This document shows, piece by piece, positions 30,239 to 33,750 of a stretch of DNA of 64,000 bases. The stretch lies in assembly GCF_003790525.1 (NCBI RefSeq), contig NZ_CP033635.1; one strand, given 5' to 3'. How positions within the stretch are numbered: the stretch's first letter is position 1; each line of letters begins with the position of its first letter. The stretch comes from Escherichia coli. GTDB lineage: Bacteria; Pseudomonadota; Gammaproteobacteria; Enterobacterales; Enterobacteriaceae. The translations under genes were made by a program, and so were the position numbers. A model generated the notes under the pieces. That model did no database searches. It saw only the letters and a program-made list of their open reading frames with translations, and was not told the origin of the DNA.

Positions 30239-30282
30239 GAGAAGGCGTTTTACCGAAAATTTCACGTCATAACAGGAAGCAG

Positions 30283-30319
30283 GCAGAGGGCAATCAGTGA
30301 TTGCCCTCTGCGTTTTTTC
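30283..30319 (+). terminator. Rho-independent terminator of putP
   Basis: CAGAGGGCAATCA-g-TGATTGCCCTCTG perfect inverted repeat followed by CGTTTTTTCT. Confidence 0.65.
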
Positions 30320-30378
30320 TCAAAATATTTTTACATCTTCTCATCATTATCACTACATTCCACTTGTATTTTTCTTCA

Positions 30379-30397
30379 TCGTAATGATAATCGATAT
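30379..30397. promoter_or_regulatory. Fur-box-like motif upstream of efeU
   Basis: tcGTAATGATAATCGATAT resembles Fur consensus GATAATGATAATCATTATC; efeUOB is iron-regulated. Confidence 0.45.
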
Positions 30398-30457
30398 CAC
30401 TGCGATTTACTTTTCTTTGCATAGATTGACTCAGAAAAACGTTTAAGGGTGGGTGGC

Positions 30458-31288
30458 ATGTTTGTTCCGTTTCTCATTATGTTGCGCGAAGGACTTGAAG
30501 CCGCGCTGATTGTCAGTTTGATTGCCAGCTATCTTAAGCGTACCCAGCGAGGCCGATGGATTGGTGTGATGTGGATTGGCGTGTTGCTTGCCGCTGCGTT
30601 GTGCCTGGGCTTGGGTATCTTCATTAACGAAACCACCGGCGAATTTCCGCAAAAAGAACAGGAACTGTTTGAAGGTATCGTGGCGGTGATCGCCGTGGTG
30701 ATCCTTACCTGGATGGTTTTCTGGATGCGCAAAGTGTCGCGCAACGTCAAAGTACAACTGGAGCAGGCAGTCGACAGCGCATTGCAGCGTGGAAATCATC
30801 ATGGCTGGGCGCTGGTGATGATGGTCTTTTTTGCCGTTGCAAGGGAGGGGCTGGAGTCGGTCTTTTTCCTGCTGGCGGCGTTTCAACAAGATGTCGGGAT
30901 CTGGCCGCCGCTGGGTGCAATGCTCGGTCTTGCTACAGCCGTGGTGCTCGGCTTCCTGCTCTACTGGGGCGGTATTCGCCTCAATCTTGGTGCATTTTTT
31001 AAATGGACCAGCCTGTTTATTCTCTTCGTCGCCGCAGGGCTGGCGGCTGGTGCCATTCGCGCATTTCATGAAGCCGGATTGTGGAACCACTTTCAGGAAA
31101 TCGCCTTCGATATGAGTGCGGTGCTCTCAACTCACTCGCTGTTTGGCACGCTGATGGAAGGGATTTTTGGCTATCAGGAAGCGCCGAGTGTCAGCGAAGT
31201 CGCCGTCTGGTTTATTTATCTCATCCCGGCGCTGGTGGCATTTGTTCTGCCACCACGCGCAGGGGCGACTGCGTCCCGCTCCGTGTAG
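30458..31288 (+). CDS. efeU: Ferrous iron permease EfeU (FTR1 family), apparently intact
   Basis: ATG 30458 (MFVPFLIMLREGLEAALIVSLIASYLKRT...), uninterrupted 276 codons with two REGLE motifs. Confidence 0.85.
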   Translation: MFVPFLIMLREGLEAALIVSLIASYLKRTQRGRWIGVMWIGVLLAAALCLGLGIFINETTGEFPQKEQELFEGIVAVIAVVILTWMVFWMRKVSRNVKVQLEQAVDSALQRGNHHGWALVMMVFFAVAREGLESVFFLLAAFQQDVGIWPPLGAMLGLATAVVLGFLLYWGGIRLNLGAFFKWTSLFILFVAAGLAAGAIRAFHEAGLWNHFQEIAFDMSAVLSTHSLFGTLMEGIFGYQEAPSVSEVAVWFIYLIPALVAFVLPPRAGATASRSV

Positions 31289-31345: not shown

Positions 31346-32473
31346 ATGACCATTAACTTCCGCCGTAACGCATTGCAGTTGAGCGTGGCTGCGCTGTTCT
31401 CTTCTGCTTTTATGGCTAACGCCGCTGATATTCCGCAAGTCAAAGTGACCGTAACGGATAAGCAGTGCGAACCGATGACCATTACGGTTAACGCCGGGAA
31501 AACACAGTTCATTATTCAGAACCACAGCCAGAAGGCGCTGGAGTGGGAGATCCTGAAAGGCGTGATGGTGGTGGAAGAGCGGGAAAATATCGCCCCTGGC
31601 TTTAGCCAGAAAATGACGGCGAATTTACAGCCTGGCGAATACGATATGACCTGCGGTCTGCTGACTAACCCGAAAGGGAAGTTGATCGTCAAAGGTGAGG
31701 CAACGGCGGATGCGGCGCAAAGTGATGCGCTGTTAAGTCTTGGTGGTGCAATTACTGCATATAAAGCGTATGTCATGGCGGAAACCACGCAGCTGGTGAC
31801 CGACACCAAAGCCTTTACCGACGCGATTAAAGCAGGCGATATCGAAAAAGCGAAAGCACTGTATGCGCCGACGCGCCAGCACTATGAGCGCATTGAACCG
31901 ATTGCTGAACTGTTCTCCGATCTGGATGGCAGCATTGACGCCCGTGAAGATGATTACGAGCAAAAAGCCGCCGATCCAAAATTCACCGGTTTCCACCGTC
32001 TGGAAAAAGCATTGTTTGGCGACAACACCACCAAAGGGATGGATAAGTACGCTGACCAGCTTTATACCGATGTGGTCGATTTGCAAAAACGCATCAGTGA
32101 ACTGGCTTTCCCACCTTCAAAAGTGGTCGGCGGTGCAGCCGGACTGATTGAGGAAGTGGCAGCCAGCAAAATCAGCGGTGAAGAAGATCGCTACAGCCAC
32201 ACCGATCTGTGGGATTTCCAGGCTAACGTTGAAGGCTCGCAGAAAATTGTCGATCTGCTGCGTCCACAACTACAAAAAGCGAATCCGGAACTGCTGGCAA
32301 AAGTCGATGCCAATTTCAAAAAGGTCGATACCATTCTGGCGAAATACCGTACTAAAGACGGTTTTGAAACCTACGACAAATTGACCGATGCTGACCGTAA
32401 TGCGCTGAAAGGGCCGATTACTGCGCTGGCGGAAGATCTGGCGCAACTTCGCGGTGTGCTGGGGCTGGACTAA
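31346..32473 (+). CDS. efeO: Periplasmic iron uptake protein EfeO (cupredoxin / M75 peptidase-like)
   Basis: 375-aa ORF with signal peptide [26 protein letters not shown]. Confidence 0.9.
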
Positions 32474-32478
32474 GCGTT

Positions 32479-33750
32479 ATGCAGTATGAAGATGAAAACG
32501 GCGTGAATGAACCGTCACGCCGACGTTTACTGAAAGGGATTGGTGCGTTGGCGCTGGCGGGAAGTTGTCCGGTCGCTCATGCACAAAAAACGCAAAGTGC
32601 ACCGGGCACGCTTTCACCGGATGCGCGCAGTGAAGCGCAGCCGTTTTATGGCGAACATCAGGCGGGTATTCTGACGCCGCAGCAGGCGGCAATGATGCTG
32701 GTGGCGTTTGATGTGCTTGCCAGCGATAAAACCGATCTTGAACGGTTGTTTCGCTTGTTGACTCAGCGTTTTGCTTTTCTGACTCAGGGCGGAGCGGCAC
32801 CAGAAACGCCAAATCCGCGCCTGCCACCACTCGATTCCGGCATTCTTGGCGGCTACATTGCGTCCGATAATCTCACCATAACGTTATCGGTGGGCCATTC
32901 ATTGTTTGATGAGCGGTTTGGCCTTACACCGCAGATGCCGAAAAAGTTGCAGAAAATGACGCGTTTCCCCAACGACTCGCTGGATGCGGCGTTATGTCAT
33001 GGTGATGTGTTGCTACAAATTTGCGCCAACACCCAGGACACGGTGATCCATGCGCTGCGCGATATCATCAAACACACGCCGGATTTGCTCAGCGTGCGCT
33101 GGAAGCGGGAAGGGTTTATTTCCGATCACGCAGCGCGTAGTAAAGGCAAAGAGACGCCGATAAATTTGCTGGGTTTTAAAGACGGCACAGCCAATCCCGA
33201 TAGCCAGAATGCGAAGTTGATGCAAAAAGTGGTGTGGGTGACGGCAGATCAGCAGGAGCCTGCGTGGACAATCGGTGGCAGCTATCAGGCGGTGCGGTTG
33301 ATTCAGTTTCGGGTGGAGTTTTGGGACAGAACGCCACTGAAAGAACAGCAGACGATTTTTGGTCGCGACAAACAAACTGGTGCGCCGCTGGGCATGCAGC
33401 ACGAGCATGATGTTCCCGATTACGCCAGCGATCCGGAAGGGAAGGTGATCGCGCTGGACAGCCATATTCGGCTGGCGAATCCCCGCACGCCAGAGAGTGA
33501 GTCAAGTCTGATGCTGCGTCGTGGCTACAGTTATTCACTGGGCGTCACCAACTCCGGGCAACTCGATATGGGGCTACTGTTTGTCTGCTACCAACACGAT
33601 CTGGAAAAGGGCTTCCTGACAGTACAAAAAAGGTTGAATGGCGAGGCGCTGGAGGAATATGTCAAACCTATCGGTGGCGGCTATTTCTTTGCGCTGCCGG
33701 GTGTGAAGGACGCGAACGATTATCTCGGAAGCGCATTATTGCGGGTTTAA
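32479..33750 (+). CDS. efeB: Dye-decolorising (DyP-type) peroxidase EfeB, Tat-secreted
   Basis: 423-aa ORF with twin-arginine motif [16 protein letters not shown]. Confidence 0.9.

Follow-up and report, generated by a model that had tools for sequence, protein, structure and literature searches.

Iron permeases of the FTR1/oxidase-dependent iron transporter family include Ftr1p of Saccharomyces cerevisiae, FtrC, cFtr1, YwbL/EfeU of Bacillus subtilis and FepC of Staphylococcus aureus. Like EfeU of Escherichia coli, they contain the PF03239 domain and a pair of REXXE motifs, and seven helices are predicted for them. The E. coli protein has been described as a 276-residue homologue of Ftr1p with seven transmembrane regions (PMC9174327), and its similarity to Ftr1p is about 25% (PMC3577903). 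Each of these FTR1/OFeT permeases, EfeU included, is coupled to an extracytoplasmic partner that oxidises or binds. The partner of Ftr1p is the multicopper oxidase Fet3p, and those of EfeU are EfeO and the haem peroxidase EfeB. EfeU is a predicted seven-helix permease of the inner membrane, and in the established family model its REGLE motifs would take hold of iron and conduct it through the membrane. EfeO, exported by the Sec route, and EfeB, exported by the Tat route, would oxidise iron in the periplasm and hand it over. According to the literature, Fur represses the efeUOB genes when iron is present and acid pH induces them; it also describes the acid-induced uptake of Fe2+ as dependent on a whole EfeU protein (PMC3577903 among others).

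EfeU has been studied in two E. coli strains, O157:H7 (Cao et al. 2007, Mol Microbiol 65:857) and Nissle 1917 (EcN; Grosse et al. 2006, Mol Microbiol 62:120). Both proteins are reported as functional in these papers, and the frameshift of the K-12 gene and the function of the intact gene have been published since 2006-2007. Here we describe efeU and its surroundings in a 64-kb stretch of E. coli DNA, referred to as the window, whose coordinates are used throughout. The features of the locus are collected in Table 1.

Table 1. Coordinates of the features at the efeUOB locus of the window
Feature	Position	Strand	Description
Terminator-like hairpin with T-run, 3' of putP	30283..30321	+	13-pair stem, 8 G-C pairs, 3-nt loop, tail GTTTTTTCTC
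Weak sigma-70-like promoter match	30330..30359	+	TTTACA, 18 nt, TACATT; 9/12 hexamer positions
Fur-box-like site	30380..30398	+	CGTAATGATAATCGATATC; 60-78 nt before the efeU start codon
CpxR-box-like direct repeat	30406..30420	-	GCAAA-N5-GTAAA; 9/10 against GTAAA-N5-GTAAA
efeU (ycdN)	30458..31288	+	Uninterrupted gene for an FTR1-family iron permease of the inner membrane, 276 aa; matches the FTR1 and EfeU models over their whole length
GG at the first and second positions of efeU codon 36 (GGT)	30563..30564	+	K-12 keeps one G only
efeO	31346..32473	+	Intact 375-aa periplasmic protein; cupredoxin and M75 (imelysin) domains
efeB	32479..33750	+	Intact 423-aa Tat-exported DyP-type haem peroxidase/deferrochelatase

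The window contains a full-length EfeU reading frame

In the list of open reading frames of the 64-kb window, efeU is held by a single plus-strand open frame that extends from a GTG at 30449 to 31288. Counted from the ATG at 30458, which is the start chosen by RefSeq for the identical gene of SMS-3-5, the gene has 276 codons and a stop (831 nt); RefSeq names that gene 'iron uptake transporter permease EfeU'. The translation starts MFVPFLIMLREGLE. No hidden frameshift or internal stop was found in efeU by inspection of the frame and by full-length profile alignments. Pfam FTR1 (PF03239) aligned to residues 1-275 over profile positions 1-283 of 284, with an E value of 3e-89 and a score of 299.5 bits (cut-off 25.3). 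Scores above cut-off were also obtained with TIGR00145 (349 bits; cut-off 303.8) and with the NCBIfam EfeU equivalog NF041756 (331.4 bits; cut-off 255). The family assignment of EfeU is unambiguous. A Pfam MFS_1 match to the same protein, at 26.9 bits and under the cut-off of 33.4, was dismissed as hydrophobic-segment noise.

A reading made from the sequence only had called efeU an intact ORF of 276 codons with both REGLE iron-binding motifs. Its coordinates and codon count proved exact, the frame is unbroken, and the two motifs are present at residues 10-14 and 129-133. A Kyte-Doolittle 19-residue scan, a crude method, outlined seven hydrophobic segments in the protein (residues 1-24, 32-61, 68-94, 118-141, 146-175, 177-204 and 242-268), and the REGLE motifs sit inside the first and the fourth of these. 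A sequence search returned no solved structure of an EfeU/Ftr1 relative at E <= 0.01; the role ascribed to the motifs therefore rests on published mutagenesis in homologues.

Alignment with the EfeU proteins of O157:H7 and Nissle 1917, which the sequence-only reading had proposed as a check, gave 274 of 276 identical residues in each case. Both proteins are 276 aa long and have the same REGLE motifs as the window protein, and O157:H7 also has the same efeU-efeO-efeB order and the same annotation. Where the window protein has V263 and V276, that of O157:H7 has A263 and A276; compared with M8 and V276 of the window, the Nissle protein has I8 and M276. All of these substitutions are conservative and lie outside the REGLE motifs, M8 being two residues before the first of them. 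Because of this near identity to both proteins, a functional low-pH Fe2+ uptake system in the window strain is strongly favoured.

K-12 efeU carries a one-base deletion in codon 36

The MG1655 annotation lists efeU (b4490) as an 830-nt pseudogene. Like the window gene, to which it is 98% identical at the nucleotide level, it is located between putP and efeO, but unlike the window gene it terminates after residue 36. Global alignment of the two sequences gave 14 substitutions and a single indel, a G that is missing from the K-12 gene at nt 106, in codon 36. The K-12 frame ends '...RWIV*', with the stop two codons past the deletion. With GG at 30563-30564 as against a single G, the window gene is not the K-12 cryptic allele. 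The position of the deletion agrees with the lesion described in PMC3577903 and PMC2808357, both of which refer to Grosse et al. 2006 and Cao et al. 2007, and the one-G deletion and early stop bear out the earlier claim that K-12 efeU is frameshifted.

When the G was restored in silico, the K-12 protein differed from the window protein at two residues only (V263A and V276A), and at both of these it matches EfeU of O157:H7. Between the window gene and the repaired K-12 gene, 12 codons differ synonymously and 2 non-synonymously, and because of these numbers the inactivation in K-12 looks recent. The 1-bp deletion in codon 36 very probably cost K-12 the EfeUOB system, and the window gene represents the undeleted, ancestral form.

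Intact efeO and efeB follow efeU

The three genes of the efeUOB operon are co-oriented in the window, with a gap of 57 nt between efeU and efeO and of 5 nt between efeO and efeB. The NCBIfam EfeO model (NF041757) matched the efeO product over residues 1-375 of 375 with 774 bits; the protein has a signal-peptide-like N-terminus and an HRLE (HxxE) motif at residue 217. EfeB matched TIGR01412 over the full length (613 bits; cut-off 428) as well as the Pfam DyP N- and C-terminal domains. It bears the twin-arginine motif SRRRLLKG, and D235, H329 and R347 are all present. Compared with the K-12 proteins, EfeO has 3 amino acid differences and EfeB has 10. The window efeUOB is very probably the ordinary complete operon of a non-K-12 E. 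coli, identical in sequence to that of SMS-3-5.

The presence of a complete EfeB bears on what such an operon mainly does. Its chief role could be to strip iron from periplasmic haem, with EfeB acting as a deferrochelatase and EfeU importing the iron, and not primarily to take up free Fe2+. In O157:H7, EfeUOB with a complete efeU uses periplasmic haem iron without the Dpp haem permease, EfeB freeing the iron and leaving the protoporphyrin intact (PMC3577903), and the window EfeB keeps both the Tat signal and the three residues named above. Such a role is, however, compatible with Fe2+ uptake, the same publications report an acid-induced import of Fe2+ for which the whole EfeU is needed, and the sequence does not separate the two roles. 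We consider it rather unlikely that haem iron is the main substrate, and prefer low-pH Fe2+ uptake as the function of the window operon.

The window derives from an SMS-3-5-like background

Positions 20000-44000 of the window are 100% identical over 24 kb to SMS-3-5 (NC_010498.1). The same 24 kb are 100% identical in at least 11 further complete genomes, with sources that include humans, dogs, chickens, a pangolin and surface water. Compared with K-12, the window shows 96.7-98.4% identity in collinear blocks, and two large K-12 segments are missing. A non-K-12 lineage had been named as the source from the letters of the window, and the 24-kb identity to SMS-3-5 together with the 96.7-98.4% identity to K-12 confirms it.

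The first missing segment, at 557-565 of the window, comprises the ~9 kb that lie between appA and cspH in K-12 (K-12 1,041,907-1,050,961) and that contain the group-4 capsule genes etk-etp-gfcEDCBA and an IS1D; the window passes from the appA side to the cspH side within a few bases. The second, at 35203-36414, is the 11.4-kb pgaABCD-dgcT-IS3D-ymdE-ycdU segment that is found in K-12 between phoH and the tRNA-Ser gene serX. It is replaced by 1.2 kb without a K-12 match, which holds a DUF2726 ORF of 228 aa (35722-36408; Pfam E = 1.9e-18) and adjoins a tRNA-Ser(GGA) gene on the minus strand (36500-36587). Since the pgaABCD segment is missing from the window, the lineage would be without the genes for the PGA biofilm polysaccharide at the phoH-serX locus. 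The neighbouring phoH (34095-35159) has an open frame of 354 aa when an upstream ATG is taken as the start, which is the choice made in the K-12 annotation (1,065 nt). The identical gene of SMS-3-5 is annotated by RefSeq as 789 nt (262 aa), a start-site discrepancy between annotations.

The intact allele is the rule in E. coli

A 1.1-kb efeU/efeO region was present in 5,417 of 5,426 complete E. coli genomes. The remaining nine had no match to it, and 7 of 5,419 matches fell on records labelled as plasmids. Alleles were counted by 61-mers centred on the codon-36 site. Among 5,379 complete genomes with a match, 368 contain the exact K-12 deletion 61-mer and 5,011 align to it with a gap or mismatches; the exact intact 61-mer of the window was found in 3,637 genomes. 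The 60 deletion carriers that were listed, out of the 368, are all laboratory derivatives of K-12; MG1655, DH5alpha, C600, J53, DH1, NCM3722 and evolved MG1655 lines are among them. The notion that the deletion is widespread in natural isolates was rejected on the basis of these 60 carriers. By the allele counts across genomes, the frameshift is a mark of the K-12 laboratory lineage: an intact efeU is the normal state of E. coli, in roughly 93% of complete genomes (about 5,000 without the deletion), and it says nothing special about the window strain.

These counts also bear on whether the intactness of the window gene could be an error of sequencing or assembly that masks a frameshift. The site is a GG dinucleotide only and no long homopolymer, at least 12 complete genomes, each sequenced independently, agree at 100% identity over the surrounding 24 kb, and the intact 61-mer recurs exactly in the thousands of genomes counted above. 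The probability of such an error is very small, and this explanation is effectively refuted.

Two genomes stood apart in the survey. SF10 (NZ_CP079767.1, L005:1426-2255), labelled as a duck cloacal isolate from China, is the one apparent exception; its efeU is nucleotide-identical to the K-12 pseudogene, has the codon-36 deletion and is annotated 'frameshifted'. SF10 may be a close kin of K-12 from nature, or else a strain of laboratory origin. In the pig isolate F2_81 (NZ_CP043542.1, L008:2926-3741), efeU is 816 nt long instead of 831 nt and is annotated as an intact CDS, and the 61-mers around codon 36 align to it in part only, which suggests that 15 nt have been lost in frame close to where the K-12 lesion lies.

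The spacer between putP and efeU is conserved next to efeU and variable beyond

The putP-efeU spacer measures 219 nt in the window versus 542 nt in K-12, where it includes REP-like sequence. About 115 nt next to the efeU ATG are nearly identical to K-12, and the distal part (30243-30341) is unrelated to K-12 sequence. The strong terminator-like hairpin lies in the part that differs from K-12 and parts putP from the efeUOB promoter region. The conserved part includes the Fur-box-like site, which matches the consensus GATAATGATAATCATTATC at 15 of 19 positions, is the best match on both strands of the 64-kb window and is the same in K-12 bar one base. This site would fit the repression of efeUOB by Fur and iron reported in PMC3577903 and PMC4746246. 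The CpxR-box-like repeat may be a chance match, because the window has six sites that reach 9/10; its location is in keeping with control by CpxAR, which Cao et al. 2007 mention in their title. The promoter-like match is one site observed against 0.6 expected from shuffles and is not significant alone. We claim no promoter position for efeU, as this sole match is weak and not above the shuffle expectation.

Structurally, the distal spacer is a hot spot: for the majority of genomes, the alignment with the window starts only at about 30327-30357. F2_81 has an opposite-strand hypothetical gene of 1,344 nt between putP and efeU, and O157:H7 strain PV15-279 has an opposite-strand hypothetical gene of 1,344 nt upstream of efeU. 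That the structural forms of the spacer, of which there are at least three, might give efeUOB a lineage-specific expression, with intact operons put to different use, is a long shot.

Alternatively, efeU could be intact as an ORF and the system silent or inactive in this lineage on other grounds, for instance through V263 and V276 or through a regulation altered by the different spacer. The two amino acid differences from each tested EfeU homologue and the distal spacer without relation to K-12 are what this explanation builds on. The differences from O157:H7 are, however, conservative and located in the C-terminal tail, away from the REGLE motifs, and the ~115 nt nearest the ATG, with the Fur-box-like site, are nearly K-12-identical. 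The excess of synonymous over non-synonymous codons relative to the repaired K-12 gene (12 versus 2) is what would be expected under purifying selection, and efeO and efeB are intact as well. We judge a silent system very improbable, and a working low-pH Fe2+ uptake system is retained as the preferred reading of the locus.

Discussion

The finding that efeU is intact in the window is correct but already known: publications from 2006-2007 onwards cover both the frameshift of K-12 and the functional intact allele, and the RefSeq annotation reflects them. The result serves as a consistency check, in that the window comes from a wild-type, non-K-12, SMS-3-5-like E. coli with the standard genes for Fe2+ uptake. 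Results on iron uptake that were obtained in K-12 should not be extrapolated to SMS-3-5-like strains.
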